Of a stretch of 39,403 nt of DNA, positions 8,370-25,824 are shown piece by piece (within the stretch, counting starts at the first letter, position 1; every line of letters begins with the position of its first letter). A program made the position numbers and the translations under genes. Under the pieces are notes generated by a model. That model was given only the letters and a program-made list of their open reading frames with translations. It ran no database searches and was not told the origin of the DNA. Origin of the DNA: a virus; IMG/VR virus record IMGVR_UViG_3300031233_000002. The stretch is one strand, 5' to 3'.

Positions 8370-8408
8370 ATTTTTTACATAACCTTTGGTATATATCTAT
8401 AAAGGGGT

Positions 8409-8538: not shown

Positions 8539-8565
8539 GAAAATTTAATTTAAAAGGAAACTTTA

Positions 8566-8766
8566 ATGATCGAAATTGAAGAAAAATATGAATACAAACT
8601 TGACTACATTATTTTTAATGATGATGAATTACTTATAGAAAAATGTCCCATAGAACATTTTGAATATACGATTAAATGGTTAAAAACTAGAGCTAAAGAA
8701 TTACAAGAATTGCTAATAATAAAAAAATATTTAGATAAAAACTATGAGAAAGAAGAAGATGATTAA
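8566..8766 (+). CDS. Hypothetical acidic protein, 66 aa
   Basis: ORF with AAAGGAAA RBS, directly downstream of the iteron cluster. Confidence 0.5.
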   Translation: MIEIEEKYEYKLDYIIFNDDELLIEKCPIEHFEYTIKWLKTRAKELQELLIIKKYLDKNYEKEEDD

Positions 8767-8848
8767 ATGGAACACCCGCATTACTAACCTAGAGGGAAAA
8801 TAACACGGGCAACCATTCTGTCAACATAAGGATATATTCACGGCAAAA

Positions 8849-10496: not shown

Positions 10497-10499
10497 GTT

Positions 10500-11745: not shown

Positions 11746-11774
11746 TTGCATTCTCTCAACAGGACATTTATAAT
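11746..11774 (+). promoter_or_regulatory. Rightward sigma70-like promoter TTGCAT-N17-TATAAT
   Basis: -35 at 11746-11751, perfect -10 at 11769-11774, 17-nt spacer. TCAAC motifs flank it at 11756-60, 11780-84 and 11786-90. Confidence 0.5.
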
Positions 11775-11805
11775 TTGCGTCAACTTCAACAAAGGAGCAT
11801 ACCAA

Positions 11806-12918
11806 GTGAATAATCAATTAACGACAGATGATTTTATTGACTCTCAATTAAAGCAATTCAATGTGACAGATCAAGCAATTCAGAAACTAAAAGACGAATA
11901 CTTTGATTTGAATATTAAAGGCATTGACGACAAGGAAGGCTACAATGTTGTCAAAGCAGCGCGATTGCATGTTAGATCATTCCGCACCGAGCTTGAAGAA
12001 AAGCGCAAAGAGTTAGTTGAAAACCCCATGCGTATCAAGCAGGCCATTGACAATGAAGCCAAACGCCGCCGCGAGCAGCTAGAAGAAATTGAATCCCACC
12101 TAAAAGAAAAAGAATTGGAATATGAGCTAGAAGTTAAGCGGTTGAAGGATGAGCAAGATAGACTTGAACGTGAGCGCGTAAAAGAATTAGAAATTCGTAC
12201 CCAAAAAAGAATTCAACAACTTTATTTAACTGGATTCCAATTAAATGGCGCAATTTATCAAGCAATTTATATTAATCATATCAGTGAATATTCCTTAGAT
12301 TTTATTAAAGATAGCGATGATAAAACATGGGAACATTCATTTAATTTAGATGTAGTTCGATTCGAAGAATTCAAAAAACAGAAAGAAGAAAAAGCTTTAG
12401 CCGAAGCCGAAGAAAAACGCATAGCCGAGATTGCCAGACAGGAAATAGCAAAACAACGTCAAGAGGAAGCCGATAGACAAGCTCAAAAGATAAGAGAGCA
12501 GCATGAGTTTGAACAAAAAGTCAAACAAGAAGAATTTGAAAACCAACAACAGTTATTAGCGAAACAAAAAGCACAATTAGATGAAGAACAAAAACTTTTG
12601 AAAGCAGCGCAAGTGGAAGCGGCTAAAGAAAATGAAAAGCTTAAAATTGAGAATGCAAAATTAGTTGAGGCGCAAAAAAATCTGGAAGCGGTTAAACCAA
12701 AATCTAAAATTAAAAAGCCAAAGAAAGATGATGAGCCAATTTTAAGTTTGTACGATGAATGTATAAGAGAATGGGAAATCCTTGTTCCAGAAAAATTTAA
12801 AGATTGTTGCGAATGGGAAGATATAGCTCTTATCTTTAAAATATTTACTGAAAAATGTGCGAAGCATTGTCTAGACTTAGACTTCAAGCAAGCAGCATTG
12901 AAGTTAGTGGAGAAATAA
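11806..12918 (+). CDS. Coiled-coil protein, 370 aa from GTG 11806; function unknown
   Basis: AAAGGAG RBS 8 nt upstream of GTG 11806. The TTG at 11746 in the ORF track coincides with the -35 hexamer. Long Glu/Lys/Gln heptad-like stretches. Confidence 0.6.
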   Translation: MNNQLTTDDFIDSQLKQFNVTDQAIQKLKDEYFDLNIKGIDDKEGYNVVKAARLHVRSFRTELEEKRKELVENPMRIKQAIDNEAKRRREQLEEIESHLKEKELEYELEVKRLKDEQDRLERERVKELEIRTQKRIQQLYLTGFQLNGAIYQAIYINHISEYSLDFIKDSDDKTWEHSFNLDVVRFEEFKKQKEEKALAEAEEKRIAEIARQEIAKQRQEEADRQAQKIREQHEFEQKVKQEEFENQQQLLAKQKAQLDEEQKLLKAAQVEAAKENEKLKIENAKLVEAQKNLEAVKPKSKIKKPKKDDEPILSLYDECIREWEILVPEKFKDCCEWEDIALIFKIFTEKCAKHCLDLDFKQAALKLVEK

Positions 12919-12919
12919 A

Positions 12920-13546
12920 ATGAGTAACTTTTGGGATAATTTGGCATGTAAAAAACATGGAAATAATTATGATATTTATTGCGTTGAATGTTTTGCAATA
13001 GTCAATTCATATGGTTTAAATCCAAATATAAAGGAAAAAATTTTCTTTTGTGATGAACATAATTGGAGAAGTACAAAAAGAACATGTCCTTTTCATCCTA
13101 ATTTATCAACAAGATTTGTTTTTGAAAAAGGCAATCCACAAAATTTTAAACGCATAAAGGAAACCAAAATGAAAACCAAACCATTCAATTTAGAAGAAGC
13201 GTTAGCCGGAAAACCTTGTGTAACTCGCGAAGGTAAAAAAGTTTTACAAGTTCATCGTTGGAAAAATGGCTACATTGCATACGTTCTTGAAGAAGATAAT
13301 GGAATGTTTTCAATTGATCAATGTGGTAAATACAAAAACCAACATGCTCCTCATTTAGATTTATTCATGCTAGTTGAGCCGCAGGTTTATTGCATTGGTC
13401 TTATGGAAATAAATTATGATCAAAGAATAAAATGTACGGGTGCTTATTTAAAAGAAAGATTTGACAAAATATATGATCGGGAAACATTTATGAAAATCAT
13501 TGAATTCACCTTAGACGAAGATGAATTTAAGGAAGTGGAGTCATGA
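12920..13546 (+). CDS. Hypothetical protein, 208 aa, with a Cys/His-rich N-terminal region
   Basis: ORF containing CKKH..C.EC...C.EH....CPFH. The second half (KPFNLEEALAGKPCVTREGKKV...) resembles a common phage domain of unknown function. Confidence 0.55.
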   Translation: MSNFWDNLACKKHGNNYDIYCVECFAIVNSYGLNPNIKEKIFFCDEHNWRSTKRTCPFHPNLSTRFVFEKGNPQNFKRIKETKMKTKPFNLEEALAGKPCVTREGKKVLQVHRWKNGYIAYVLEEDNGMFSIDQCGKYKNQHAPHLDLFMLVEPQVYCIGLMEINYDQRIKCTGAYLKERFDKIYDRETFMKIIEFTLDEDEFKEVES

Positions 13547-13953
13547 AAATTGATATTCGTAAAGTAAAAAAAACGCATCCATTCACTCAGGCGTTTGATT
13601 ATTACTATGAGTTTAGCGTGGATGGTACGCCTATATTTTTTCTTAGCACAAGTTTGTTTGAACAAGGTGAATTAGAAATTGTGGCAGGCTTGGAGAAGCT
13701 AGCGAATCATATTGAAAAACTTCCCACGTTGCCCTACCCATTTAATGATAAACAATTGGAGCATAAAAAAAATGAGACTTCTAAAGAAATTTGGGTGGTA
13801 TCAATTCCCTGTTCTAAGAACTATAAGGGCTTACCACTGAAAGACTTTAGAGCGTTTGACGATTATGATTTGGCGCAACGCTTTATTGAAACGAATATGG
13901 GTGCGGAGTTGCACCTGTCTAAAATTGACCTTTATGAGAAGAAAAATTTATGA
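13543..13953 (+). CDS. Hypothetical protein, 136 aa
   Basis: ORF with ATGA start/stop overlap with the upstream gene. Confidence 0.55.
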   Translation: MKIDIRKVKKTHPFTQAFDYYYEFSVDGTPIFFLSTSLFEQGELEIVAGLEKLANHIEKLPTLPYPFNDKQLEHKKNETSKEIWVVSIPCSKNYKGLPLKDFRAFDDYDLAQRFIETNMGAELHLSKIDLYEKKNL

Positions 13954-14243
13954 ATGATAAATGTGAGAACTGTGAATCAGAATTTACGGACTTAGAACAA
14001 AAGTCAAAAGAACAAGATGGTGCTAAAATTTGGTATTGTTATGAGTGCATCGGAGATGGTGAATTTACGGAGCATGGAAATTATGTACGCTTGGTTAATT
14101 TTTTAAAAGAAATTGTGAATATTGAAAAAATTAACATTCCTAAAGGCTATTCTTTGCAAAATAAAGCTATTTATTTGCTCAATTCTATTGGAGAAATAGA
14201 TTATTTTAAATGTCATGAATGTCAAAAGAAAATTAAACTTTAA
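13950..14243 (+). CDS. Zinc-ribbon protein, 97 aa
   Basis: CENC...CYEC...CHEC motifs. ATGA overlap with the upstream gene. Confidence 0.55.
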   Translation: MNDKCENCESEFTDLEQKSKEQDGAKIWYCYECIGDGEFTEHGNYVRLVNFLKEIVNIEKINIPKGYSLQNKAIYLLNSIGEIDYFKCHECQKKIKL

Positions 14244-14314
14244 TACATTATTCCAGTTATAACTATTACTGGAAATATGACCATTACCTTTTACTCAAAC
14301 TTAAGGAAAAACTG

Positions 14315-14569
14315 ATGCAAAAATCACTACCTATTACGATTGACCTTTTAACAGTCGATGGAGACCGTAACCCAGTTGATGGCATTTTGCAATTCAATTT
14401 AGGAGGCAAGAAGTACTTTAGTATGGAAACGCAATTTTTGCGCCGTGCAACTGCGCCAGAGATTGCTAATGCCCTGCTAGAACACAACCAGTATCTAATT
14501 GACTCCTTCATGAAAAAGCAGCGCGAGCTTTTGGACGCCTCCAAAAATGATAGGGAGATGGCACAATGA
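14315..14569 (+). CDS. Hypothetical protein, 84 aa
   Basis: ORF with AAGGAAAA RBS. Confidence 0.5.
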   Translation: MQKSLPITIDLLTVDGDRNPVDGILQFNLGGKKYFSMETQFLRRATAPEIANALLEHNQYLIDSFMKKQRELLDASKNDREMAQ

Positions 14570-14808
14570 ATGAGCTTAAAGATGATAATTTGCAGATAAC
14601 TTTTATTAAACAATTTGTGAATAATGAATATTTACTCTTATTCAAAACTTTAACACGATGGTTGCCTATTTCAGCCGAAGATATAGGAAACACAGCCAAT
14701 CCTACGGCCGTTTTAAATATATCATCCATTAGAGCATTGCGTGATTTTTTAAGTAATTTACTACCTGAAATGGAGACAAATAAAGATGAGCATGACCAAA
14801 ATTGGTAA
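14566..14808 (+). CDS. Hypothetical protein, 80 aa
   Basis: ORF with ATGA overlap. Confidence 0.5.
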   Translation: MNELKDDNLQITFIKQFVNNEYLLLFKTLTRWLPISAEDIGNTANPTAVLNISSIRALRDFLSNLLPEMETNKDEHDQNW

Positions 14809-15100
14809 CATTCCCGCGTTATTTTTAATTTTAGGCCAAAGCAATCGTGGTCAATTTCAAATGGGTTTCCGTAGCCAAGGTGACACGATTAAACTTAATG
14901 CCGTGGATAATACCAAGTTTGGTGATGAATACCCTAGCTGCTACATTGAAGCCGATGAAATACAAAAACTACTCGAATTTTTAAAATCTAACTATCAAGG
15001 ATTAATACATGACGGACGAACAGAAAGCGCAAGAAATGGAGAAATTGTCAAAGAAGGCTATTTACTTAGCAGGGAAATTGTTCCAGACAATGAATGCTAA
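14786..15100 (+). CDS. Hypothetical protein, 104 aa
   Basis: ORF. Its 3' end overlaps 15009..15299 by 92 nt, so one of the two boundaries is uncertain. Confidence 0.4.
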   Translation: MSMTKIGNIPALFLILGQSNRGQFQMGFRSQGDTIKLNAVDNTKFGDEYPSCYIEADEIQKLLEFLKSNYQGLIHDGRTESARNGEIVKEGYLLSREIVPDNEC

Positions 15101-15299
15101 GATCAATCATTTTAATAACACCATGGGAAAAGAGGAAGCTGGGTATATTGCCATGATCACACTCGGCGTTTTCTTGAAAAAAATGACAAAATGGATGTTT
15201 AAGGATATGCCACTTGATATGCAAAAAGAATTCATTACTGACATTGCTAAAGAAGCTAATACAATTTTAGACAAAGAATTTAAGGATGGCTTGCAATGA
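15009..15299 (+). CDS. Hypothetical protein, 96 aa; alternative start ATG 15090
   Basis: AAGGA RBS 8 nt upstream of 15009 and a helical-looking N-terminus MTDEQKAQEMEKL. Starting at 15090 would give only an 11-nt overlap. Confidence 0.45.
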   Translation: MTDEQKAQEMEKLSKKAIYLAGKLFQTMNAKINHFNNTMGKEEAGYIAMITLGVFLKKMTKWMFKDMPLDMQKEFITDIAKEANTILDKEFKDGLQ

Positions 15300-15676
15300 C
15301 ACAGGAAGAAATTTTGAAACTTTACACTAGCTTTGAAACATCCACAAAACTGAAAGAATTAGGCTTCGACTATCCTGACAATTACCAATGCTGGTATCAA
15401 TTTGATGGTGATATTGACCCTAGAATAGCCAACAAACTCCGGGGTTATCTGCATCCCGGCGAAAATCTTTGCGAGGCATATAATGCGGAATTCTTGATTG
15501 ATAAACTTCCTAATGGTGCTTACATAAAAAAATGTGAAGATTCTTATTCAGTAAATTATGATAAATTTTTTGAGCATGATGGATTTTATAATACTTTTCA
15601 CTCTATCTTAGTTGAAGCAATAGCTTGGTTTATTATAGGGGAAATACGAGAAAAAAGGATGGAAGTACCAAAATGA
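15296..15676 (+). CDS. Hypothetical protein, 126 aa
   Basis: ORF with ATGA overlap. Confidence 0.55.
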   Translation: MTQEEILKLYTSFETSTKLKELGFDYPDNYQCWYQFDGDIDPRIANKLRGYLHPGENLCEAYNAEFLIDKLPNGAYIKKCEDSYSVNYDKFFEHDGFYNTFHSILVEAIAWFIIGEIREKRMEVPK

Positions 15677-15957
15677 CCATACTTGGCTGGATAAGTAAAG
15701 ACTACGATACTAAAGATTGTAAGCTGATTTATAGGGTAAAGTCAGATAAGCCCGTCTCACACCGTGAAATATTCTCATTTGATGACTTTGGTTCGTGGGT
15801 CACATGTCATTCAATTGGATGCAGGAAGATTGAAACGGTTTATGGTGACACGCCATATTCGTTCTACGAGGTAACGGGTGAGGTAACTGACGTACACAAT
15901 AAAGTTAGCACCCCCAAAAAAACCAAAGAATGGCGCAGGATTATAGGAATTCGATAA
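15673..15957 (+). CDS. Hypothetical protein, 94 aa from ATG 15673
   Basis: ATGA overlap with the stop of 15296..15676. The upstream TTG start at 15625 is less likely. Confidence 0.5.
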   Translation: MTILGWISKDYDTKDCKLIYRVKSDKPVSHREIFSFDDFGSWVTCHSIGCRKIETVYGDTPYSFYEVTGEVTDVHNKVSTPKKTKEWRRIIGIR

Positions 15958-16292
15958 TGAAATTCACAAAACTAAAAAATTGGTTTAGCCCAGCTATTAA
16001 GATAGCTTCCGTACCATGTCGAGAAATTCCGTATCCTAGTAATTACAAAGACATTATAAATACTTCCCAATTCAGAGAGGCGATTCAAAATTATTCTGAT
16101 TATTGGGAAATGTTAGGTTATAAAAAAGAACAAATAATGCCTTTTGTTATTCGACATTCAGTATTTCTTTCATTGATGGATGAATTTTTTATTAAGACTG
16201 AGACACAATATGACCGTAACAGTAATATGATATTTAGTTATGGTGCAGTCAATGTGCTAGCCATTCCAGATAGGTTTTTTGTACTATTATGA
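15957..16292 (+). CDS. Hypothetical protein, 111 aa from ATG 15957
   Basis: TAATG overlap with the upstream stop. N-terminus MKFTKLKNWF. Confidence 0.5.
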   Translation: MKFTKLKNWFSPAIKIASVPCREIPYPSNYKDIINTSQFREAIQNYSDYWEMLGYKKEQIMPFVIRHSVFLSLMDEFFIKTETQYDRNSNMIFSYGAVNVLAIPDRFFVLL

Positions 16293-16327
16293 AAAATTTT
16301 CAACAATGATAAGAGAGTAGTGCTGGT

Positions 16328-16540
16328 ATGAAAATTCAAAAATTAATAGTTGCCCCCACTTATTTTGATCAGGTTATTTGTCAGGGCGATATTTTGGAAA
16401 TTGCCTACTTAACGCTATTAGTTAAGTTGTGCTTTTTTAGACAAGGTAGATGGATTCTAGGGGTGCAGTTATTGAATGAACGAAAAGGCAAGAATGAAGC
16501 CGCACCAGAAACATTATTGATACGGCCTCCCTTGATTTAG
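16328..16540 (+). CDS. Doubtful hypothetical ORF, 70 aa
   Basis: ORF only. Weak RBS and an odd hydrophobic composition. Confidence 0.25.
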   Translation: MKIQKLIVAPTYFDQVICQGDILEIAYLTLLVKLCFFRQGRWILGVQLLNERKGKNEAAPETLLIRPPLI

Positions 16541-16771
16541 CATTCTTTCTTTTCGCCCTTCATGCCTTTCTTCTTGGCTTTTTTCTTACCCATGGCTTCG
16601 ATTCCTTAAGGTTAATTTACATACAAGAAATTACTTTTTAACAAAGGATTGACAATTTAGCAAGAAGATATTAATGGTACAAAATTGATCATATTGTATA
16701 CTTAATATTCTTTTATGAAATCCCCTATTTTTTAAGGTTCAAATAACACTCTGATTGACTTACCCATAGGG

Positions 16772-16780
16772 TTATCCACA
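16772..16780 (+). promoter_or_regulatory. Consensus DnaA box TTATCCACA
   Basis: Exact 9-mer match, in the 323-bp intergenic region upstream of the replication module. Confidence 0.4.
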
Positions 16781-16801
16781 GAAACTGTTTGTAACTTTTT
16801 T

Positions 16802-16817
16802 GTTCCACGCGTGAAAC
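16802..16817. promoter_or_regulatory. Near-perfect 16-bp palindrome GTTCCACGCGTGAAAC; candidate operator
   Basis: 7 of 8 positions pair around an ACGCGT centre. It lies about 45 bp upstream of the wHTH gene at 16864. Confidence 0.3.
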
Positions 16818-16863
16818 ATTTTAATAATATTACAAAAATATTTAAAAGAGGTAAAAAAACAAA

Positions 16864-17151
16864 ATGAACAATAACATTTCAGTAGCAATTTTATCAGAAG
16901 AATTAGCAAAATCTATTTGGGTAGATTATCACGATAAAAATATCACTTTGCTTACAAGGGAAATATTAGCGAAAAATTATAATTTGACCTATCGCAGAAT
17001 CAATAAGGCCATAAAAATTTTAAAAGACAAAGGTCTTGTTTATTTTATACATACAAGTAATGAAAGCGGACTATTGAATCCACAAGAGATATTTTTTTAT
17101 CAAGGTAAAAGATATCAGGATGAAAAAAAAGAGGAAAGGGTAATAAAATGA
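16864..17151 (+). CDS. Small winged-helix DNA-binding protein, 95 aa
   Basis: LTREILAKNYNLTYRRINKAIKILKDKGLVYF is a MarR/GntR-like wHTH pattern. RBS AGAGGTAAAAA. Confidence 0.5.
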   Translation: MNNNISVAILSEELAKSIWVDYHDKNITLLTREILAKNYNLTYRRINKAIKILKDKGLVYFIHTSNESGLLNPQEIFFYQGKRYQDEKKEERVIK

Positions 17152-17291
17152 AGTAGTATTCTAAGTTTACTCCCGCCAGCAAAGCTCTAACTTTAGGCAG
17201 GCGGGTTCAATTCCATTTAACAGGTAGTGCAATTTTAAGGGATTTTAAAGGAATCTCAAGCTTTTTTGCACTCCGCGAAGGAGAAATTTTA

Positions 17292-18086
17292 ATGCAACAT
17301 CATTTTGATATTGAACTAGCAAAAGAATATGGCATGAACGTAGCAGTATTTCTGGATAATCTTTCCTTTTGGATCGTTAAAAATCAGGCAAATAATAAAC
17401 ATTGTCATGATGGCAGATATTGGACTTATAACTCAGTAGATGCCTTTGTTGAACTGTTTCCTTATTGGTCAAAAAAACAAATAGAAGGTATGCTTTCAAA
17501 GTGTAAAGAATTCGGTCTAATTCAAACAGGTAACTACAATCTTACACCATATGACCGGACAAATTGGTACGCTTTAACTGATTTTGGACATAAGTTATTG
17601 AATGTACCCATTTCCCCAAAAGGGGAAATGGAAATCCTAGAAAACGGAAATCAATTTCCTCAAAAGGGGAAACCTATACCAGATACTAAACCAGATACTA
17701 ACCATATATTAAATACTCCCCAAACCCCTCTTTCTAAAAATGATATTGAGCTACCCACATGGTTGCCCAAAAATGATTGGAAAGATTTTGTCGAACACCG
17801 AAAATACATCAAAGCCCCGCTCAGCGACAACGCAGCCAAGCGCGCCATTAAATCCTTGGAGAGCTTGAGGCACAAAGGGCACAATATCTCCAAGGTGATT
17901 GACCAGAGCATTGTGAATGGCTGGAAAGGTTTATTTGCCGTTAAGACCACCGAGCATAGCGCACCACAGAAAAAAATGACCAAATCAGAAATTCATTGGA
18001 ATTCCGTCAAAGGCTCACTAAAAGGAACAAAATATGACCCAGAATGTAACCCTTCACTCGACCCATTCCACAAAGGCTCTTATTGA
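17292..18086 (+). CDS. Replication initiator / replisome organiser, lambda O-like role, 264 aa
   Basis: N-terminal wHTH pattern (AVFLDNLSFWI...GRYWTYNSVDAFVELFPYWSKKQIEGMLSKCKEFGLI...DRTNWYALT). C-terminal LPTWLPKNDWKDFVEHRKYIKAPLSD...ESLRHKGHNISKVIDQSIVNGWKGLF is typical of phage replication proteins. Repeats occupy the linker. Confidence 0.6.
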   Translation: MQHHFDIELAKEYGMNVAVFLDNLSFWIVKNQANNKHCHDGRYWTYNSVDAFVELFPYWSKKQIEGMLSKCKEFGLIQTGNYNLTPYDRTNWYALTDFGHKLLNVPISPKGEMEILENGNQFPQKGKPIPDTKPDTNHILNTPQTPLSKNDIELPTWLPKNDWKDFVEHRKYIKAPLSDNAAKRAIKSLESLRHKGHNISKVIDQSIVNGWKGLFAVKTTEHSAPQKKMTKSEIHWNSVKGSLKGTKYDPECNPSLDPFHKGSY

Positions 18087-18636
18087 TTTTTTATTTGTAA
18101 GGCTTGCTGGCATGTACGGTTATTCATGGACTTCTATGCACCCGGACAGTGCATCATGGGAAGTAATGAAAGATACATGGGCTTTTCATATAAAAAACTA
18201 TTCTGCGGATGTTTTAGCAAAGGCTATGGAAGATTTAGTTAATTTGGGGGAAGAATTTCCTCCCAATTTAATTAAATTTGTAAAATTATGTAATAAACAT
18301 TCTGGAATACCTACCGAAGAAGAATGTTACAAAGCCGCATTGAAAAGAGATTTTGAGTTATCTCTAACCCAACAATGTTTCGATAAAATTGGCGATTGGA
18401 AGTTTAAAACCTCAAATGAAAAAGATTTACGCAAAGACTTCCATGAAGTCTACATTGAAGAAATAGCAAATTTTTATCGTAATCATGGAAAAGAAAAATC
18501 AATTGAGCATGATGAACCCACCTATACCGAAGAAAAGAAAAATTTTGAGGGCATAAAAACTCAAATGCCCGATGACCTAAGAGAATTAACCAAAAAAATG
18601 GAAGAAAAAGCCTTACTCTACAGGAAGAAAAAATAA
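18034..18636 (+). CDS. Lambda P-like replication protein; candidate helicase loader, 200 aa
   Basis: LIDFLFVRLAGMYGYSW...WEVMKDTWAFHIKNYSADVLAKAMEDLVNLGEEFPPNLIKFVKLC parallels the N-terminal lambda P pattern (..FP....W..af......v..g.......FlPSPGqFV.WC). It follows the O-like gene. Confidence 0.5.
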   Translation: MTQNVTLHSTHSTKALIDFLFVRLAGMYGYSWTSMHPDSASWEVMKDTWAFHIKNYSADVLAKAMEDLVNLGEEFPPNLIKFVKLCNKHSGIPTEEECYKAALKRDFELSLTQQCFDKIGDWKFKTSNEKDLRKDFHEVYIEEIANFYRNHGKEKSIEHDEPTYTEEKKNFEGIKTQMPDDLRELTKKMEEKALLYRKKK

Positions 18637-19061
18637 TGACCCCCATTGACGAAAACAAGATGGATAATCTTATCAAGCTGCAAGAGGGATTGCGGTTAAA
18701 ACCCTACACGGACACCACAGGCAATCTTAGCATTGGCTATGGACGCAACCTTACCCGAGATGGGATTAGCCAAGCCGAAGCCACTATGATGTTTCAGGAT
18801 GATGTTGCGTCCGTGGAGCGTGAGCTTTCTTTGAATGCGCCATGGTACACGCAATTGAATGACGCTAGACAATCTGTATTAATTAACATCACGTACAATG
18901 AGGGTATTGGTGGTTTAATGCAATTCAAGGACATGCTGCGCGCGCTGGAAGCTGGAAATTTTGAGGAAGCTTCCAAGCAGCTACTGGACAGTCTAGCTGA
19001 CAAACAGTTACCATCCCGCTACAACAAATTGGCGTATATCTTAGAAACGGGTATTTTGTAA
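18636..19061 (+). CDS. Endolysin, GH24 T4-type lysozyme, 141 aa
   Basis: LIKLQEGLRLKPYTDTTGNLSIGYGRNL carries the Glu...Asp...Thr catalytic arrangement, and the rest of the fold signature is present (NITYNEGIGGL). Confidence 0.85.
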   Translation: MTPIDENKMDNLIKLQEGLRLKPYTDTTGNLSIGYGRNLTRDGISQAEATMMFQDDVASVERELSLNAPWYTQLNDARQSVLINITYNEGIGGLMQFKDMLRALEAGNFEEASKQLLDSLADKQLPSRYNKLAYILETGIL

Positions 19062-19380: not shown

Positions 19381-19454
19381 TGCGGAATAGAGAAAAAGTA
19401 TCTCGTGAGTCTCATAAGCTCAAGTTATCGGTGCAATTCCGGTTTCCGCTACCA
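19381..19454 (+). tRNA. tRNA-like gene with anticodon CAT (Met or Ile2 type), encoded CCA, non-canonical D and T loops
   Basis: Hand-folded cloverleaf. Acceptor 19382-87 pairs with 19444-49 (6 bp, with a U1xU72 mismatch). D stem GAGA/TCTC. Anticodon stem TGAGT/GCTCA with loop CTCATAA. T stem ATCGG/CCGGT with G53-C61 and loop TGCAATT. A73 then CCA. It lacks G18G19 and has G55. Confidence 0.5.
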
Positions 19455-19867: not shown

Positions 19868-20184
19868 TTATGTTTTGCCTTTTTGCTTTGCGCCTCTAAT
19901 ACCATCCAGTCCATTGCCTTTTGGCACTCTGGCGAAACCGTCTGTTTTTCAATGGTCTGAATATGATTAGACAGTAAAACCTCCTGACTGTCGGCTTTCT
20001 TTTGGGCGGTAGCTGCTTGTGCTATTGCTAAAGTGGATTGCGCCTTGAGCGAAATTATCTGCGCTGCATTTTGTTCTACTTCAGTAGTCAATATTGTTAT
20101 TTCATGTTTTTGCCCAGCAAATACCAGCAAAGCAACAATGAAAATTCCCCCAGCAGTTAATCCTAAAATTCCTGTTAAATTCAT
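19864..20184 (-). CDS. Inner-membrane spanin (Rz-like), 106 aa
   Basis: N-terminal TM segment GILGLTAGGIFIVALLVFAG followed by a coiled-coil periplasmic domain. Adjacent to the lipoprotein partner. Confidence 0.6.
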   Translation of the reverse strand: MNLTGILGLTAGGIFIVALLVFAGQKHEITILTTEVEQNAAQIISLKAQSTLAIAQAATAQKKADSQEVLLSNHIQTIEKQTVSPECQKAMDWMVLEAQSKKAKHK

Positions 20185-20489
20185 TGTTCGCCCTTTTCAT
20201 TATTGTCAAATCTTGCCAATGGCTGCGAGGTGTCTTTTATCCGCATGTTCATGCTAAATGCTACCGCTATAACACTTATTCCCGTAGCATAATCTGTAGG
20301 CGACCAAGGATGCCCAAGATTGGCGGCTACTTCCGACAAGTGATCATAATAAATAAAACTCAGAGCCATCCACACGCGCCCTGAATCATAAGTACTATTA
20401 TCTTTCCCTGTCAAAATATCATGAATTAACTTCACTACGCCATTAACGAGGCGATTGAATAATGACAGGGGGGTAATCGAGCTATTCAT
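20181..20489 (-). CDS. Membrane protein, holin candidate, 102 aa
   Basis: Hydrophobic segments VWMALSFIYY and GISVIAVAFSMNM. Immediately upstream of the spanins. No family recognised. Confidence 0.35.
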   Translation of the reverse strand: MNSSITPLSLFNRLVNGVVKLIHDILTGKDNSTYDSGRVWMALSFIYYDHLSEVAANLGHPWSPTDYATGISVIAVAFSMNMRIKDTSQPLARFDNNEKGEQ

Positions 20490-20635
20490 GTGAGCCTGTA
20501 GTTTTCTGTTAGTACCAATAAATAATCAATATAGACAATCAGCGTAGCTATCCCCATGAGCAATAGCAAGAGCAATGCGCTCTTAAACATCCAACCAAAA
20601 AAATCTTCAATCATTTCTTTTGTAATCCTTTTCAT
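20486..20635 (-). CDS. Single-TM micro-protein, 49 aa; holin / antiholin candidate
   Basis: Hand translation gives MKRITKEMIEDFFGWMFKSALLLLLLMGIATLIVYIDYLLVLTENYRLT. ATGA overlap with the next gene. Below the ORF-track cutoff. Confidence 0.35.
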   Translation of the reverse strand: MKRITKEMIEDFFGWMFKSALLLLLLMGIATLIVYIDYLLVLTENYRLT

Positions 20636-20638
20636 CGT

Positions 20639-20848
20639 TCAATCATCCTCATAAGGTGGTTTATATTCTAACTTGTACTTCGCCTCAATTTCTCTGGAGA
20701 GCATAATTAATGCAATGCTTTTTTGATCATTGGACTGACTTTTTTTATAAATATCCAGTCGCTTTTGTATGTGGTGCAATATCTCTTGTATCACCTCTTT
20801 TTGCTTTTTGGTATAACCCTTCTTTTCATCCCGAGCAAAATAATTCAT
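20639..20848 (-). CDS. Hypothetical protein, 69 aa
   Basis: ORF. Its ATG overlaps the stop of an upstream 33-aa acidic micro-ORF. Confidence 0.45.
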   Translation of the reverse strand: MNYFARDEKKGYTKKQKEVIQEILHHIQKRLDIYKKSQSNDQKSIALIMLSREIEAKYKLEYKPPYEDD

Positions 20849-20945
20849 CTGATAAACCCTATTTCATCTTCATACGTTAATTCCTCAAGAGCATCCTCGT
20901 AATAGGATGTTTCTTCGTGGTCTTGCGTGTAGTCATCCTCTTCCA

Positions 20946-21209
20946 TTATTTTATCCTCGGTAAAAATTTAGGGGGTGGTAAAATCTTTTTAGGTGAAGGT
21001 TGTCGGTGAGAAACTTCTTTTCTATCGGGAGCATCTAAATAACGGCTAGCACCTTTTTTCTTTTCCTCCTCCAACCACATCAAAGCTTCTCTTATTTTTA
21101 TGATAATCTTCTCCATCTCAAAAGTTTCAATAGACCGTTCGGCAAATTCTAATGCCCCTCTCAAGCCTAATTCTATTTCTTGATCGTGTGAGGTGCGGTA
21201 ATGGGTCAT
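20946..21209 (-). CDS. Hypothetical protein, 87 aa
   Basis: ORF with ATGA overlap with paralog H. Confidence 0.45.
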   Translation of the reverse strand: MTHYRTSHDQEIELGLRGALEFAERSIETFEMEKIIIKIREALMWLEEEKKKGASRYLDAPDRKEVSHRQPSPKKILPPPKFLPRIK

Positions 21210-21394
21210 GGCTTATCCTCGAAATATTTCACTAAATTTTCTAAGGACTCAGCAATTCTTTTAAGTTGCTCTACTTTAGCAATCTCCCATATTTCTTTAA
21301 CTTTTACAGGCAATTCTCTCGCAATTCTAGAATCTAAAGCTTCATAAAGTTTTTCAGTAGCTTTGAATTCTTTTATTTGTTCAACCGTTTTCAT
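21206..21394 (-). CDS. MKTVEEIK-family paralog H, 62 aa
   Basis: N-terminus MKTVEQIKEFK. Its start is embedded in the C-terminal NENG* codons of paralog G. Confidence 0.6.
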   Translation of the reverse strand: MKTVEQIKEFKATEKLYEALDSRIARELPVKVKEIWEIAKVEQLKRIAESLENLVKYFEDKP

Positions 21395-21551
21395 TTAACG
21401 TATCCTCGGAGTCGATGAATTCTAAAATTTCTTCAAACGCTTCTTGTTTAGCATCATAAAATCTATAACTATCATCATATTTCTTTTTTCTAGCTCTACA
21501 AAGAATTGATTGTCCTATTGCAAAGTCTTTTATCTGCTCGGCGGTTTTCAT
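21381..21551 (-). CDS. MKTVEEIK-family paralog G, 56 aa from ATG 21551
   Basis: MKTAEQIKDF...ILEFIDSEDTLNENG. AAAGGA RBS upstream of 21551. The longer track start at 21581 is unlikely. Confidence 0.6.
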   Translation of the reverse strand: MKTAEQIKDFAIGQSILCRARKKKYDDSYRFYDAKQEAFEEILEFIDSEDTLNENG

Positions 21552-21717
21552 TCGATAAATCCTTTGAGTTAATAAAATCAATCATCATTTCCATGCACTT
21601 AGCTCTAACCATATATCTGACCGTGCTCTCTAAATCAATATCTGTATTTCTTTCAGAATTTTTGTAAAACGCTAATTGCGTTAAGCAAAATTCTTTTATT
21701 TCTTCATTGCTTCTCAT
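21496..21717 (-). CDS. MKTVEEIK-family paralog F, 73 aa, C-terminally extended
   Basis: MRSNEEIKEFC...MIDFINSKDLSNEN, then 15 further residues because the usual TGA inside the next gene's codons 4-5 is absent. Confidence 0.55.
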   Translation of the reverse strand: MRSNEEIKEFCLTQLAFYKNSERNTDIDLESTVRYMVRAKCMEMMIDFINSKDLSNENRRADKRLCNRTINSL

Positions 21718-21883
21718 TCGGGGCTTCCTCGATGAAGTTTAATATTGCGCTGCATTGATCATGGCAACCTTGTTGATAATATTTTTCCTCTTTTAATTTG
21801 CGTTTAACATAATCAGCAATAATTCTCATTGCTAGATTCTGTTCTTTCATAATGAATTGCTTGATTTCTTCAACTGTTTTCAT
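21704..21883 (-). CDS. MKTVEEIK-family paralog E, 59 aa from ATG 21883
   Basis: MKTVEEIKQFI...LNFIEEAPNEKQ. Its start is embedded in the NENS* codons of paralog D. Confidence 0.6.
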   Translation of the reverse strand: MKTVEEIKQFIMKEQNLAMRIIADYVKRKLKEEKYYQQGCHDQCSAILNFIEEAPNEKQ

Positions 21884-22043
21884 TGATATCATCCAGTAAG
21901 TAATTCAATTCGTCATAAGCACCTAGATCATAAGAGTAACCTTGATTGTTTGTGCCGCAAAGTTTTTGCGTTTCTTTCATATTCTCTAAGAGAGTTTCTT
22001 TGCGCTCGGCAATTATCTCTAGGATTTCTTCAACTGTTTTCAT
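21870..22043 (-). CDS. MKTVEEIK-family paralog D, 57 aa from ATG 22043
   Basis: MKTVEEILEII...LNYLLDDINENS. TGATG overlap with the stop of gene C. Confidence 0.6.
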   Translation of the reverse strand: MKTVEEILEIIAERKETLLENMKETQKLCGTNNQGYSYDLGAYDELNYLLDDINENS

Positions 22044-22366
22044 CATATAAAGCACCTTATTAATCTGTTGTATTTTTCTTTTGTGTCATGTCCATCCCAT
22101 TTGTATAACTTATCCGTTGGAAGTCTTGATAAAAGATTTTTTTCAGAATCATGAAAGTGCCACGTCATTTGAAGTTCACCTTTCTCAATAACAAGAACTG
22201 TGCGCCAGTCATCTTCCCAATCATCACCCACATGTTCAGCTACAAAAACGCGAAAGTTAGGATAAGCTATGTCTCTTATAAAATTGGCTAAAGCAGCAAT
22301 GCACTTATTTCTTTCGCCATAGGCTTCATCTTTAATTTTAATTAATTCTTCAACTGTCTTGGTCAT
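22043..22366 (-). CDS. Protein with the MKTVEE-type N-terminal module fused to an unrelated domain carrying a WDGH motif, 107 aa from ATG 22366
   Basis: MTKTVEELIKIK, then ...DDWEDDWRTVLVIEKGELQMTWHFHD...YKWDGHDTKEKYNRL. ATGA overlap with the upstream micro-ORF. Confidence 0.55.
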   Translation of the reverse strand: MTKTVEELIKIKDEAYGERNKCIAALANFIRDIAYPNFRVFVAEHVGDDWEDDWRTVLVIEKGELQMTWHFHDSEKNLLSRLPTDKLYKWDGHDTKEKYNRLIRCFI

Positions 22367-22521
22367 GTCAATATCAATCCCGCTATTAAACACAAAAGTA
22401 AAATTACAATAATAACAAAATTCAATATCTCTAAATAATCGTTATAGTGAGTAGTTGTATAACGGTCTAATGCAATATGCACTATCATTAAGACCAACAT
22501 AAAAACATTAAATAGCTTCAT
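22363..22521 (-). CDS. Membrane micro-protein, 52 aa
   Basis: Hand translation gives MKLFNVFMLVLMIVHIALDRYTTTHYNDYLEILNFVIIVILLLCLIAGLILT. ATGA overlaps at both ends. Confidence 0.35.
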   Translation of the reverse strand: MKLFNVFMLVLMIVHIALDRYTTTHYNDYLEILNFVIIVILLLCLIAGLILT

Positions 22522-22709
22522 TCGCCTATTTCCTCACTGTATTTGACCATGGCTTGAAAATAAGCTCTTACCCTTCCATTTTCGCATGACCAATATTGAA
22601 AGCCGCCTAAAGGTTGCCAACCATCGTCTATTAAGGCGTTAACTTTATCTTCTAAATTTTTACAACTTTCATTTGAACCGGCAATGGCATACTTAATTAT
22701 CTTCTGCAT
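22518..22709 (-). CDS. DUF1737-like small phage protein, 63 aa
   Basis: The pattern KY.I.......LEDKVNALIDDGWQPLGG......YFQAMVKY matches my recollection of DUF1737. Confidence 0.55.
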   Translation of the reverse strand: MQKIIKYAIAGSNESCKNLEDKVNALIDDGWQPLGGFQYWSCENGRVRAYFQAMVKYSEEIGE

Positions 22710-22869
22710 ACATCACCATTGGTTGACAATACAATATTATTTTTTCCCCTATCTGCAAAGTTAAGCTTCCAAAAGGTTGCCAACCTTGATTAATAAAAAA
22801 CTTTGTATCACTAATTACTGCTAATTTGTCATCGCCATTTATTATTGTATAATCAATTATCTTTTGCAT
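22693..22869 (-). CDS. Second DUF1737-like paralog, 58 aa, below the ORF-track cutoff
   Basis: Hand translation gives MQKIIDYTIINGDDKLAVISDTKFFINQGWQPFGSLTLQIGEKIILYCQPMVMYAEDN. It has the same MQKII start and GWQP core as 22518..22709, and a 17-nt overlap with it. Confidence 0.45.
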   Translation of the reverse strand: MQKIIDYTIINGDDKLAVISDTKFFINQGWQPFGSLTLQIGEKIILYCQPMVMYAEDN

Positions 22870-23041
22870 CGCTGGCCTCTTTATTTTCCATCAAATTAAC
22901 TATCTCTCTATCCAGATCAGCTAACATTGTCCATTGGCCAAATAAAGCTGTTTTTGACATCTTCCTTATTAGAAGCCTTACTTCATTCATAGCGTTGCAG
23001 TAACTATTTTCGCTCATACAATGTTCATGATGATGTGTCAT
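22853..23041 (-). CDS. Hypothetical protein, 62 aa from ATG 23041
   Basis: MTHHHEHCMSENSYC... Its start is embedded in the C-terminal codons of paralog B. Its own C-terminus AKDN* overlaps the MQKII start of the next gene. Confidence 0.45.
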   Translation of the reverse strand: MTHHHEHCMSENSYCNAMNEVRLLIRKMSKTALFGQWTMLADLDREIVNLMENKEASDAKDN

Positions 23042-23207
23042 TCGCGTCCTCGCTGTCGATGTAGTCAAGTAATTTATTAAAATTATCAATAATTATTAAA
23101 GCATGATCTTTATCTTTCGTTAATTTGTATTTTGCGTTTACGAATCTATTCTGCTCTCTTGTTATTGTAAGATGTATATATTCTTTGACTTGCTCAATCG
23201 TTTTCAA
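23025..23207 (-). CDS. MKTVEEIK-family paralog B, 60 aa from TTG 23207
   Basis: (M)KTIEQVKEYI...LLDYIDSEDANDTSS. TTG overlaps the upstream TGA (TTTTGAAAACG) and GGAG lies 11 nt upstream. Same length as paralog A. Confidence 0.55.
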   Translation of the reverse strand: MKTIEQVKEYIHLTITREQNRFVNAKYKLTKDKDHALIIIDNFNKLLDYIDSEDANDTSS

Positions 23208-23383
23208 AATATAATCTCCGTACAATAATGGGTTGTAAATTCTTTACAATATGAAAATTTACCTTTGCATTCGCAACATTCATCCTCGCCGTTTTCAGGC
23301 CATTCCCAACAATCAGAAAAAACATAACCACAGTGAGGGCAAGCAAAATTATCTTCTCTGAATTCATGATCAATCGTCTTCAT
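23204..23383 (-). CDS. Zinc-ribbon protein, 59 aa from ATG 23383
   Basis: MKTIDHEFREDNFACPHCGYVFSDCWEWPENGEDECCECKGKF. The track start at 23455 would overlap the upstream micro-ORF by 86 nt. Confidence 0.5.
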   Translation of the reverse strand: MKTIDHEFREDNFACPHCGYVFSDCWEWPENGEDECCECKGKFSYCKEFTTHYCTEIIF

Positions 23384-23513
23384 AAGGGAAATATTTCCTT
23401 TTTTTACAAGAATTACATTCAATATATTTGCATCTTGCTCCAACATGATTGTCAAAAATAGAATCCCAATTATGACCTACAAAAAAACATAAGATTTTTT
23501 TAATCATTTTCAT
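23370..23513 (-). CDS. Cys-rich micro-protein, 47 aa, DUF1660-like pattern
   Basis: Hand translation gives MKMIKKILCFFVGHNWDSIFDNHVGARCKYIECNSCKKRKYFPYEDD. The motif LC...GH.W...C..C recalls DUF1660. Overlaps genes on both sides. Confidence 0.4.
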   Translation of the reverse strand: MKMIKKILCFFVGHNWDSIFDNHVGARCKYIECNSCKKRKYFPYEDD

Positions 23514-23583
23514 TTTTCTTTCTCCGGCGGCTCAGGAAGCGGTTGCCAATGGGATATTGGCATATCAAACTTTCCTCGTATGT

Positions 23584-23754
23584 TCATGTGGGCTGCTCCA
23601 ATAATATTTTTTTAACTTCTTCCAGAATATTATTTATCTCTTGGATGGAATAAATCGTAACTTCAATACAATTTCCATAGGCTACTTCAAGTTTAATAGC
23701 TCGATCTCCACCTATTACTAATGGCTTTAATTTAATTAGTTTTAGTTCACGCAT
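23584..23754 (-). CDS. Hypothetical protein, 56 aa from ATG 23754
   Basis: GAGGA RBS 8 nt upstream of ATG 23754. N-terminus MRELKLIKLKPLVIGGDRAIKLEV. Confidence 0.4.
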   Translation of the reverse strand: MRELKLIKLKPLVIGGDRAIKLEVAYGNCIEVTIYSIQEINNILEEVKKILLEQPT

Positions 23755-23884
23755 CGGGATGTTCCTCAGTTTCAAATCCTTCACAAAATTCGTGTTGGTC
23801 GCACGTATCACAACCAAGAAAGCAATCGTCCCATTGACAACGCCTCGTTATAATTTCTCCTCCACAACCTTTATGGATTAGCAT
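23747..23884 (-). CDS. Cys-rich micro-protein, 45 aa
   Basis: Hand translation gives MLIHKGCGGEIITRRCQWDDCFLGCDTCDQHEFCEGFETEEHPDA. Its start lies inside the last codons of paralog A and its stop overlaps the next ATG. Confidence 0.35.
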   Translation of the reverse strand: MLIHKGCGGEIITRRCQWDDCFLGCDTCDQHEFCEGFETEEHPDA

Positions 23885-24053
23885 TAGCTTTGTCCTCATC
23901 CGAGTCAATGTAGTCCATTAAATCTTTATAAATTGTAGTTTTATCAAAATGTCTTATTCTTTGATCATTTGTTAACTCTGTATCTTTCGCCCATGCAAGG
24001 TGATACTGCGCCTTTTCTTCAATAAACTTTTTAACTTGCTCTAGGGTTTTCAT
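23871..24053 (-). CDS. MKTVEEIK-family paralog A, 60 aa from ATG 24053
   Basis: MKTLEQVKKFI...LMDYIDSDEDKANANP. AAGGAG RBS. ATGA overlap with the upstream micro-ORF. Confidence 0.6.
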   Translation of the reverse strand: MKTLEQVKKFIEEKAQYHLAWAKDTELTNDQRIRHFDKTTIYKDLMDYIDSDEDKANANP

Positions 24054-24470: not shown

Positions 24471-24665
24471 TTAGTAATACCTCTTGGGTAAGTTGGGTTT
24501 CCCTACGTTTGTACCGCGATATTTAATGGCACATGTTGCATGTTGCGTGCGCCATTGGCGTTTGTCTTGGCCTATTTCATTTTCGGGGATGCGCTCAAAG
24601 TGACCCGCACCGGGTTCAACGTACTGTCCGCACCGATAACACTTACCACCGTAACTATTTCGCAT
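24471..24665 (-). CDS. Small Cys/His protein, 64 aa from ATG 24665
   Basis: MRNSYGGKCYRCGQYVEPGAGHFERI...HATC. Its ATG is embedded in the upstream gene's last codons. Confidence 0.45.
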   Translation of the reverse strand: MRNSYGGKCYRCGQYVEPGAGHFERIPENEIGQDKRQWRTQHATCAIKYRGTNVGKPNLPKRYY

Positions 24666-24855
24666 TGCGATACCTCGCAAGATCAAGGGGTTTCCAGTCC
24701 TCACCAGCTAGAGCAAGTCCATAAGACAAGCTATACCCTACCAATAAAGGCAGCATGTAAAAGGTATTGTAAAACCTCCACATCAAATAAACGAAGGTGA
24801 ATGTGGATAGTAGGGCTAGCATAGATAATATGTCGCACAAGGTATGTCTGATCAT
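24655..24855 (-). CDS. Membrane protein, 66 aa
   Basis: Two hydrophobic segments. Preceded by the conserved leader TTTAACCTAGAGGAG. Confidence 0.4.
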   Translation of the reverse strand: MIRHTLCDILSMLALLSTFTFVYLMWRFYNTFYMLPLLVGYSLSYGLALAGEDWKPLDLARYRNAK

Positions 24856-24883: not shown

Positions 24884-24899
24884 GCCCCCTTGCGGGGGC
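24884..24899 (-). terminator. GC-rich hairpin with a GCAA tetraloop just after the DUF932 stop; attenuator, terminator or mRNA-stabilising element
   Basis: Minus-strand GCCCCC-GCAA-GGGGGC, a 6-bp G/C stem, followed by TTACTTTAA, which is a poor U-tract. It lies inside an otherwise AT-rich operon. Confidence 0.4.
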
Positions 24900-24906: not shown

Positions 24907-25764
24907 TTAGGCACTCTTTAGCTTTCTCATTTCCTCTGTCAGCGTCCACAAGGCGCGGTTAAGCTTTGTGTTTTCGTCAATGCTATTCACGGCGCGCATA
25001 CTCGTTCGTCTGTGACGACCGTTAGCATCCCGTGTCCAACCTGATTGACCACCTTTGATAATGTTCTCTTGAGCAATATTAAACGTGGTGAATAGGTCTG
25101 TGGCACCTACTTCCTGACGTCTACGAGCGCGGATTAATTGCTGCGGTTCAATCGCTGCACCCATATTGTCGCCTTCCTCAAAGCGGATAGCGTGAGCGGC
25201 ACGGGCAAACGCCAATTGTTCCTCTGGCTGTAATCGAATCTCGCTCATTTCTTGCGCTGCCTCTAGCATGTGTGTAGCAGAATCCATGACTTCGTAGCTA
25301 CCTTGAATCACGTTATCAATGATATTGCCTTGGTGGCGTACTCTGACCTCCTCATATTTATTGCCAGCCATCAAGCCATTAGTGCAGATCAAACGGAAAA
25401 CCCCTGCTATCAATTTATAGGAGGAAAGACCGTCATGACTATTGATCAACACCAATTCAGGATACAAACCGCCCGAAACAGGTCTAGCGTCAACGTGACG
25501 AAAGCGCATTAAGTGTTTAGTGAAGCCTATCTTGTTTTCAAGGCGCGCCCGTGATTGAGTCACATATACAGGTTGAAAGCCTTCACCCATCAAGCCCTTG
25601 ACCACCTCTATAGTAGAAATGTGTGTGTAACGGTCTGAAACGTGTTGCGCGCCATGTTCAGCAAATACAGACGGGGCTAACTCGTGAATACGGTCTAAGC
25701 TCAATGGAGCTAATGATTGAATATCTCTGCGAAAACTAATTGCATCAGCTTTACTAAACATCAT
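24907..25764 (-). CDS. DUF932-family protein, 285 aa from ATG 25764
   Basis: Motifs YTHISTIEVV, GFTKHLMRFRH, LVLINSHDGLSSYKLIAGVFRLICTNGLM and the overall size match my recollection of DUF932 (phage/plasmid-like protein). AGAGGA RBS 8 nt upstream of ATG 25764. Confidence 0.7.
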   Translation of the reverse strand: MMFSKADAISFRRDIQSLAPLSLDRIHELAPSVFAEHGAQHVSDRYTHISTIEVVKGLMGEGFQPVYVTQSRARLENKIGFTKHLMRFRHVDARPVSGGLYPELVLINSHDGLSSYKLIAGVFRLICTNGLMAGNKYEEVRVRHQGNIIDNVIQGSYEVMDSATHMLEAAQEMSEIRLQPEEQLAFARAAHAIRFEEGDNMGAAIEPQQLIRARRRQEVGATDLFTTFNIAQENIIKGGQSGWTRDANGRHRRTSMRAVNSIDENTKLNRALWTLTEEMRKLKSA

Positions 25765-25824
25765 AAATAATTCCTCTAGGTTAATGTAACGTTCAAACGT
25801 TAGACAATCCAACGTTGTAACAAC

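Follow-up and report, generated by a model that had tools for sequence, protein, structure and literature searches.

Seven small genes on the minus strand of an uncultivated tailed phage, IMG/VR virus record IMGVR_UViG_3300031233_000002, encode members of an undescribed protein family of ~55 residues; the family is real and is found in viral contexts only. The whole stretch of DNA analyzed, 39,403 nucleotides (nt) long, is referred to here as the window. We favor, with moderate confidence, an overall reading in which the seven proteins belong to a genuine family of helical hairpins, their genes coupled in translation and their central portions exchanged as cassettes, and together modulate the infected cell as accessory factors.

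The genes lie in a region where a preliminary description of the sequence had listed eight paralogous open reading frames (ORFs), A to H. All eight are present on the minus strand where it had placed them, with the translations that it gave (lengths in amino acids, aa):

23871..24053, minus strand: A, 60 aa; both canonical motifs; an isolated copy
23025..23207, minus strand: B, 60 aa; a complete member, starting at TTG with GGAG 8 nt upstream
22043..22366, minus strand: C, 107 aa; a probable WDGH-domain protein, not a family member
21870..22043, minus strand: D, 57 aa; canonical N-terminus and degenerate C-terminal motif; has its own conserved lineage
21704..21883, minus strand: E, 59 aa; C-terminal variant ILNFIEEAPNEKQ
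21496..21717, minus strand: F, 73 aa; N-terminus MRSNEEIKEF; identical to database protein P0004
21381..21551, minus strand: G, 56 aa; canonical; the member modeled by AlphaFold2
21206..21394, minus strand: H, 62 aa; canonical N-terminus; C-terminal motif shortened to LVKYFEDKP; Pro29 near the middle

D to H follow one another without interruption, and A and B are set apart from them by Zn-ribbon and membrane micro-ORFs. The shared start noted earlier is also borne out: ATGAAAACNNNNGARSARRT, allowing at most one mismatch, occurs six times in the window, always on the minus strand at these gene starts, as against 0.01 occurrences in shuffled sequences. In the protein it reads M-K-T-x-E-[QE]-[IV]-[KR]-[EKQD]-[FY]-[IL] in A, B, D, E, G, and H and is weakened in F. 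A C-terminal motif, [IL]-L-[DE]-[FY]-I-[DN]-S-[ED]-[DE], follows ~45 residues past the start in A, B, G, F (MIDFINSKD), and E (ILNFIEEAP); it is degenerate in D (LLDDINENS) and H, and absent from C. Six of the ORFs (A, B, D, E, G, and H, 56-62 aa) fall within a length range of 46-63 aa, F exceeding it through a lost stop codon and C lying well outside it. At the DNA level, only the first 21-32 nt of the genes are detectably repeated by self-BLAST, and Tandem Repeats Finder returned nothing for the array.

The paralogous relationship is confirmed by full-length matches from a profile built solely from sequences outside the window phage and searched against 756 ORFs, which retrieved A (E = 8e-15), G (6e-14), B (6.5e-14), E (2e-11), F (1.6e-7), and D (8e-6). 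After truncation of its first 12 residues, the same external profile retrieved G (2.6e-10), B (7.9e-9), A (5.5e-6), and E (6.3e-4), was marginal for F (0.096), and was not significant for D and H; in most copies, then, similarity does reach past the start. An N-terminal-only external profile matched B (1.6e-6), A (2.8e-6), G (2.9e-6), H (2.1e-5), and E (4.9e-5), and more weakly F (4.8e-3) and D (0.12); C, at 4.3, was not matched. Pairwise BLASTP alignments ran end to end for A-B, A-G, B-G, F-G, D-E, and E-G. The full external profile reaches H only over the N-terminal 12 residues (5e-4); LVKYFEDKP resembles a shortened ILEFIDSEDKP, and H has the same GAGGATAAGCCATGA 3' end as G-type members, an end that also resembles that of the gene at 5704-6009 of the related locus L002 (other loci and database proteins are cited by L and P numbers, respectively). 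H is, judging from these sequence features, a probable diverged member.

Of the eight members originally claimed, seven (A, B, and D-H) therefore stand. C had been read as the N-terminal module of the family fused to a different domain, and its first ~12 residues (MTKTVEELIKIK) do resemble the family start, codons 3-7 matching codons 2-6 of D and E at 14/15 nt. Family profiles nevertheless left C unmatched (none at E <= 1 with the full external profile, none at E <= 10 with the A4 profile). It is instead most likely a WDGH protein, which carries the WDGH motif (KWDGHD) and aligns over residues 13-103 with 85/97 positions of Pfam WDGH PF25311, at E = 2.9e-4 and a score (21.5 bits) below the gathering cut-off of 27, and which matches phrog_16023 at E = 4e-9. 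Xanthomonas and Streptomyces phage proteins found by tblastn (E = 1e-7 to 3e-4) align with C from residue 14-16 onward, and the N-termini of its phage homologs are unrelated to its own. C differs from other WDGH proteins in that its first 12 residues resemble the start of the hairpin family; a chimeric or recombinational origin of these 12 codons is possible.

A HMMER search of 1.84 billion cluster representatives recovered 56 proteins at E <= 1e-3, matching essentially end to end and 46-63 aa long, with the exception of P0008 (101 aa) and P0004 (F, as above). Their common design is MKT[IVAL]EQ[VI][KR]E[FY][IL], then ~30 residues without column conservation, then [EK][IL]L[DE][FY]IDSE[DE] and 0-8 more residues. 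Wherever its surroundings were examined, the family lay in a phage, in a viral contig, or within a prophage-like element of a bacterial contig; homologs occur in at least six independent viral contig types, and IMG/VR contained one family locus. The family had been reported as unrecognized, and curated libraries bear this out: Pfam, NCBIfam, PADLOC, and the PDB gave no consistent match, per-member scans yielding scattered single matches. Against known defense and anti-defense families (Pfam, including Acb2_Tad1_hairpin, Tad2-like, and Lar; PADLOC), 57 sequences gave only unrelated single matches with E of 8e-4 to 5e-2. A PDB profile search and Foldseek against the PDB and BFVD gave nothing at E below 0.5, returning only generic hairpins and uncharacterized viral proteins. 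The one library family matched by more than one member (3/57, best E = 3.4e-5) was phrog_37106 of PHROGs v4, which suggests that a few relatives are probably already in phage genome collections; it carries no annotation, and most members, including all seven of the window, fall short of it. Megablast of the studied region against 50,697 GenBank phages gave no match, nor did tblastn of two strong members against GenBank phages; a scan of representative genomes of 185,579 bacterial and archaeal species, made by the peptide MKTIEQVK only, showed no family pattern, and a literature search on the motif strings returned no papers.

The genes of the array are joined in a regular way. From D to H, neighbors overlap by 14, 14, 56, and 14 nt. 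The fixed 14-nt overlap of consecutive copies is ATGAAAACnGTTGA, in which the TGA of one gene falls within codons 4-5 (V-E) of the next, and the NEN[SG] tail of the first (NENS at the end of D) is the MKTV(E) of the second read in another frame. The junction features are:

21870..21883, minus strand: D/E overlap, 14 nt, ATGAAAACAGTTGA; the stop of D lies inside the codons for MKTV(E) of E
21704-21717, minus strand: E/F overlap, 14 nt, arranged as D/E
21381-21394, minus strand: G/H overlap, 14 nt, arranged as D/E
21405..21419, minus strand: DNA of the C-terminal motif of G, TTCATCGACTCCGAG(GA), encoding FIDSE, with GAGG 9 nt upstream of the ATG of H

The same 14-nt overlap is found in L001 (10001-10014) and L014. 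F overlaps G by 56 nt (21496-21551) and reaches 73 aa because the codons GCC GAG of G, in place of GTT GAA, lack the embedded TGA; its 19 extra residues (RRADKRLCNRTINSL) are encoded in the alternative frame of G. Outside the consecutive run, the start of A overlaps the stop of the upstream membrane ORF (ATGA) and the TTG start of B that of the upstream Zn-ribbon ORF (TTGA), the Joint Genome Institute having called the protein of B with L as its first residue (P0002).

Ribosome-binding signals appear to be embedded in the C-terminal motif. The codons for SE[DE] read nGAGGA or TCGGAG and stand ahead of the next ATG whether or not the next gene belongs to the family; the GAGGA of A, for example, is 9 nt before the ATG of a Zn-ribbon gene. 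By manual count, 16/19 members from three phages have a Shine-Dalgarno-like tetramer 4-10 nt before the next ATG. Across these 19 members, the GC content of third codon positions (GC3) is 0.54 in the 9-codon C-terminal motif, 0.30 in the N-terminal motif, and 0.24 in the rest of the genes, and the C-terminal motif has an excess of ATC, GAC, TTC, and GAG (Fisher tests, p = 1e-4 to 7e-3; GAG vs GAA, p = 0.003; the p-values are optimistic because the members share phylogenetic history). NGDK replaces the motif in the L009 lineage, yet the DNA (AATGGAGAT) keeps GGAG before the next ATG. In L006, a single case, a gap follows the gene, no coupled downstream gene is apparent, and SED is absent. We conclude that the SE[DE] codons double as the predicted Shine-Dalgarno site of the next gene, in what would be a tight translational coupling. 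Constraint at the DNA level thus applies to a portion of the C-terminal motif and to the entire Asn/Glu tail, because the Shine-Dalgarno site and the next start lie there, and the acidic/Asn tail and IDSED ending of the preliminary description, while present, are not purely protein features. The N-terminal motif, by contrast, is conserved as protein, since its synonymous sites are free to vary among paralogs (ACC/ACG/ACA, GAG/GAA, CAA/CAG). RNA structure gating the coupling was considered and rejected, the eight junctions folding at z of -0.56 to +0.61.

AlphaFold2 modeled G, from a 57-sequence alignment, as a two-helix hairpin with helices at residues 4-25 and 30-47 (mean predicted local distance difference test score 87.1; predicted template modeling score, pTM, 0.68) and a disordered acidic C-terminal tail. 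H, modeled from its sequence alone, came out as one long helix (pTM 0.45), which was uninformative. The topology of the G model would bring the two conserved motifs, the first 11 residues and the final helical turn with its acidic stub, next to each other where the hairpin is open, an arrangement that we term the clasp; the hypervariable ~30 residues would make up the distal half and the turn at the closed end. The centers are far more variable than the ends, as had been described, with lengths of 19-56 aa, net charges of -8 to +7, and 2% Cys; sub-lineages with conserved centers nonetheless exist among the database members. The charge span argues against one common nucleic-acid-like ligand, and a uniform DNA-mimic or nucleic-acid-binding role was rejected on this ground.

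Two related phages share the genome layout of the window, L001 having 6-7 members and L002/L003 having 7, and more distant phage types have one or two members each. Ordinary homologous genes of the window and L002 share 70-75% DNA identity, and the ends of their hairpin genes share 92-97% over 31-45 nt. Three pairs of positional orthologs (A/L002 1598, E/L002 5262, and G/L002 5704) are identical at 30-33/36 nt of the 5' end and, over the 3' motif, at 25/27 nt for the E and G pairs and 16/27 for A/L002 1598, the centers of all three being similar only at the level of shuffles. The E pair (L002 5262-5420) has 33/36 nt identical at the 5' end, 25/27 nt in the 3' motif, and a center identity of 0.44 vs 0.46 for shuffles. 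Synonymous differences in identical codons number 8/39 in the ends vs 148/292 in control genes (p = 5e-4). The comparison suggests recombination within the conserved ends, with centers replaced as cassettes. Chimeras of the modules also occur: L002 4615-4794 has the N-terminal module only, L009 is a Zn-ribbon-hairpin fusion, and P0008 (L002 5704-6009, 101 aa) has two C-terminal motifs, comprising a whole hairpin, ~35 unrelated residues, and a second motif (VLEFIDSEDKP), which looks like a partial internal duplication or a recombination product of neighboring copies.

Elsewhere in the same pair of genomes, window 23584-23757 (57 aa) and L002 2817-2987 have synonymous differences in 4/28 identical codons vs ~50% in other shared genes, which suggests a recent exchange of this segment between the two lineages.

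Selection could be measured in one window lineage. D and its orthologs P0009 and P0036 have a ratio of nonsynonymous to synonymous change (dN/dS) of 0.06-0.17, with a proportion of synonymous differences of 0.56-0.81 indicating that synonymous sites are near-saturated; the lineage is clearly under purifying selection and stable. The rapid divergence under arms-race selection that had been proposed for the array is not supported by these values, and cassette replacement fits the differing centers of positional orthologs at least as well as fast point mutation does. The proposed local expansion stands, and the fixed 14-nt junction points to tandem duplication as its simplest route. Diversification by a diversity-generating retroelement was rejected, self-BLAST of the array against the whole window showing no template copy and the centers being unequal in length; a scan limited to 21 larger ORFs revealed no reverse transcriptase. 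Silent donor cassettes are likewise excluded because no center is copied elsewhere in the genome.

Combining these observations, we suggest that the array grew by tandem duplication of a unit that included the overlap. Recombination would keep the 30-45-nt conserved ends alike between phages, and the centers would be swapped or replaced as cassettes. Each copy may act as a small, soluble binder, probably in the form of a dimer that makes up a four-helix bundle, since two-helix hairpins usually form such structures. The conserved clasp would then provide the fold, self-association, or a common partner, and the variable distal surface would direct each paralog to a different host (or phage) protein. 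Function, that is, binding proteins with targets of their own, is the weakest step in this scheme.

Several observations weigh against the scheme. The D lineage and other sub-lineages keep their centers, contrary to continuous turnover, and two further datasets yielded copies with 100% identity to the window, so that no cassette turnover was seen at the population level. Recombination is deduced from just three pairs of positional orthologs, of which one, G and L002 5704-6009, can be explained by gradual divergence because the proteins are ~43% identical overall. The Shine-Dalgarno overlap is absent in D, L002 2084-2254, L002 4778-4945, and L013, a preference for accuracy-optimal codons at conserved residues could explain some of the GC3 bias, and the Fisher tests are subject to the dependence among members noted above. 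Foldseek was uninformative, a two-helix hairpin being too generic a fold.

Among the alternatives, the best supported is that the array is an anti-defense or host-takeover arsenal in which each paralog acts against a different host immunity protein and the centers are under positive selection. This would account for the multiple copies, the hypervariable centers, the unrelated centers of positional orthologs, and the confinement to viral contexts, and it suits an operon of small accessory ORFs (Zn-ribbons, DUF1737, WDGH) to which related phages add Lar, DUF551, and YopX. However, D, the sole testable lineage, is strongly purifying and several other sub-lineages retain their centers; no member matches any Pfam model, anti-defense families included, and PADLOC gave nothing consistent. 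Moreover, the recognizable anti-defense genes of the relatives (Acb2/Tad1-hairpin, Tad2-like) are in a different operon, beside recombination genes. We therefore regard the arsenal as unlikely, although it retains some weight, and an anti-defense or host-takeover role as such is purely inferential.

It is somewhat less likely again that the conserved unit is the DNA junction, made up of coupling signals and homology arms, with the protein family largely a by-product. The GC3 bias and Shine-Dalgarno site within the C-terminal motif fit such a view, as do the scarcity of synonymous changes between phages in the ends relative to ordinary genes, the one-module chimeras (C, L002 4615-4794, and the L009 fusion), and the similar overlapped starts of operon genes outside the family (ATGCAAAAGATAATTGA of a DUF1737-like gene; MPKTIEQ in L002). 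Yet both motifs are kept in one ORF beside non-family neighbors (A, B, and the copies in L006 and L013), and the N-terminal motif, with its freely varying synonymous sites, has an ordinary GC3. In addition, the AlphaFold2 model brings the two motifs together, with hydrophobic positions in a helical pattern.

An elaboration of the favored scheme, to which we give a slightly smaller chance still, would make the array a natural library of binders, a scaffold with variable surfaces that phages diversify by cassette exchange using the 30-45-nt ends as homology arms. The arms would allow centers to be swapped between co-infecting phages and between paralogs, each hairpin would target a different host defense or housekeeping protein, and the C-terminal codons would keep each new cassette translationally coupled to its neighbor. 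A length of 30-45 nt is about the minimum homology for Red/RecT-type single-strand-annealing recombinases, and window-type phages encode recombination genes of their own. If true, cassette exchange through conserved ends would be a simple, enzyme-independent means of diversifying a phage binder repertoire.

Precursor peptides of the ribosomally synthesized and post-translationally modified (RiPP) or similar cassette type, with recognition flanks around a hypervariable core, are highly improbable: the resemblance is one of formal pattern (conserved flanks identical at the DNA level, hypervariable core, tandem copies), whereas the window proteins that were scanned included no modifying enzyme, protease, or exporter, the centers are helical and charged with few Cys, Ser, or Thr residues, and the prediction confidently folds the entire protein into a hairpin. 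Chance likeness of ORF starts or non-coding artefacts, for which only the small size of the ORFs speaks, is refuted by the start-motif count, the full-length matches from independent sequences, dN/dS well below 1, and the homologs in independent viral contig types.

The window approximates a complete ~39.4-kb genome with P22-like portal and coat proteins. Its phage sequence is carried by 56 blocks of public assemblies, mostly ~39-kb contigs, and the two occurrences from other datasets (L007 and L008) are identical to it over 4-6 kb of the studied region. Such near-clonality is unusual for an environmental phage, and no related prophage and no relative of the portal were found in representative bacterial genomes. 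The portal is at most 24.5% and the large terminase at most 40% identical to GenBank phage proteins, and the nearest large terminases (40%), from Pseudoalteromonas and Vibrio phages, hint at a gammaproteobacterial host.

The small-ORF operon is densely packed on the minus strand from ~25812 to 19864, between the lysis and terminase modules. It diverges from the terminase and structural genes, which run from 26168, and converges with the replication-lysis operon (11746-19061); another leftward operon, at 7235-11393, contains recombination genes. The small-ORF operon had been called early. This is an assumption, its only prop being a sigma-70-like consensus match upstream of the first gene (DUF932), from a scan whose sites were no more numerous than in shuffles. 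Beside the hairpin genes, the operon encodes a DUF932 protein, several Zn-ribbon micro-proteins, two DUF1737-like paralogs, and the WDGH-domain protein. Other features of the operon and its surroundings are:

24907-25812, minus strand: DUF932 gene
24471-24704, 23747-23908, 23370-23513, and 23204-23455: Zn-ribbon-like Cys-rich (CxxC) micro-ORFs, interleaved with A and B
22693-22869 and 22518-22709: overlapping pair of DUF1737-like paralogs (MQKIIKY.../MQKIIDY...GWQP[LF]GG), with one weak DUF1737 match (E = 4e-4)
19381-19454, plus strand: tRNA-Met (CAT anticodon), identified by both ARAGORN and Rfam; it occupies the space left between the lysis module and the minus-strand operon where they converge

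The Rfam scan found the tRNA only. The ATGCAAAAGATAATTGA start of the DUF1737-like paralogs embeds the stop of the upstream gene, as the starts of the hairpin genes do. Directly downstream of the DUF932 gene, at 24884-24899, is a perfect stem-loop with a 6-bp all-GC stem (GCCCCCGCAAGGGGGC) and a weak T-tract, which could be a terminator or processing site between that gene and the small-ORF operon. Zn-ribbons and hairpins also meet in other phages, in the fusion of L009 (10155-10451) and in L014, where a Zn-ribbon ORF directly precedes a hairpin gene, and the two may be functionally linked. In L001/L002, anti-defense genes of the Acb2/Tad1-hairpin or Tad2-like kind come after a gene for an RNase_T-type exonuclease; the window has an RNase_T homolog at 8849-9421 on the minus strand.

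Most of the small-ORF operon falls in the 20-24 kb stretch, where GC content is 0.34 vs ~0.41 elsewhere and GC skew is strongly negative. This is one of two AT-rich blocks, 12000-17000 and 20000-24000 (GC 0.34-0.36), which have opposite GC and AT skews. Small ORFs fill both, on the plus strand in the first block and on the minus strand in the second, and the first block yielded no hairpin-family member.

New inhibitors of bacterial immunity and of host machinery come mainly from the small accessory proteins of phages, most of which are encoded by orphan genes. The hairpin family offers several handles on such proteins, namely a search signature, a confident fold prediction, and multiple diverged copies in three related phages; sub-lineages with conserved centers permit selection tests, and the split between conserved ends and variable center suggests which surface holds specificity. 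It also calls for caution in motif-based inference in packed phage operons, where a protein motif can partly be an mRNA signal, here a Shine-Dalgarno site and an overlapped start and stop.

Three known systems bear comparison with the array. Rop/Rom of ColE1 is a 63-aa helical hairpin that dimerizes into a four-helix bundle and has a disordered acidic C-terminal tail. The hairpin proteins are of the same size class and have the same predicted succession of helix, tight turn, helix, and short acidic unstructured tail; Rop, however, is single-copy, plasmid-borne, and not hypervariable. The analogy is one of shape only, as the profiles showed no similarity (hhalign probability 0.2%, 4 aligned columns) and Rop was absent among the 22 Foldseek PDB matches listed. 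Precursor genes of the cyanobactin/prochlorosin type have conserved flanks and hypervariable core cassettes, and the array resembles them in its near-identical DNA flanks, unrelated cores, and several copies, differing in its phage context, its predicted folded product, and the lack of biosynthetic machinery in the scanned part of the window proteome.

The third comparison is with lambdoid and P22-like phages, whose nin/ea-type regions group small accessory ORFs, paralogous mini-genes among them. Dense, overlapping, coupled small ORFs and mosaic exchange between related phages are common to both, and the hairpin genes co-occur with DUF1737, DUF551, Lar, YopX, and Zn-ribbon proteins. In contrast to those regions, the hairpin array consists of one family with 6-8 copies per genome and a fixed 14-nt overlap, located between the lysis and terminase modules, and the contrast of conserved ends with a hypervariable center is unusually sharp within single genes.

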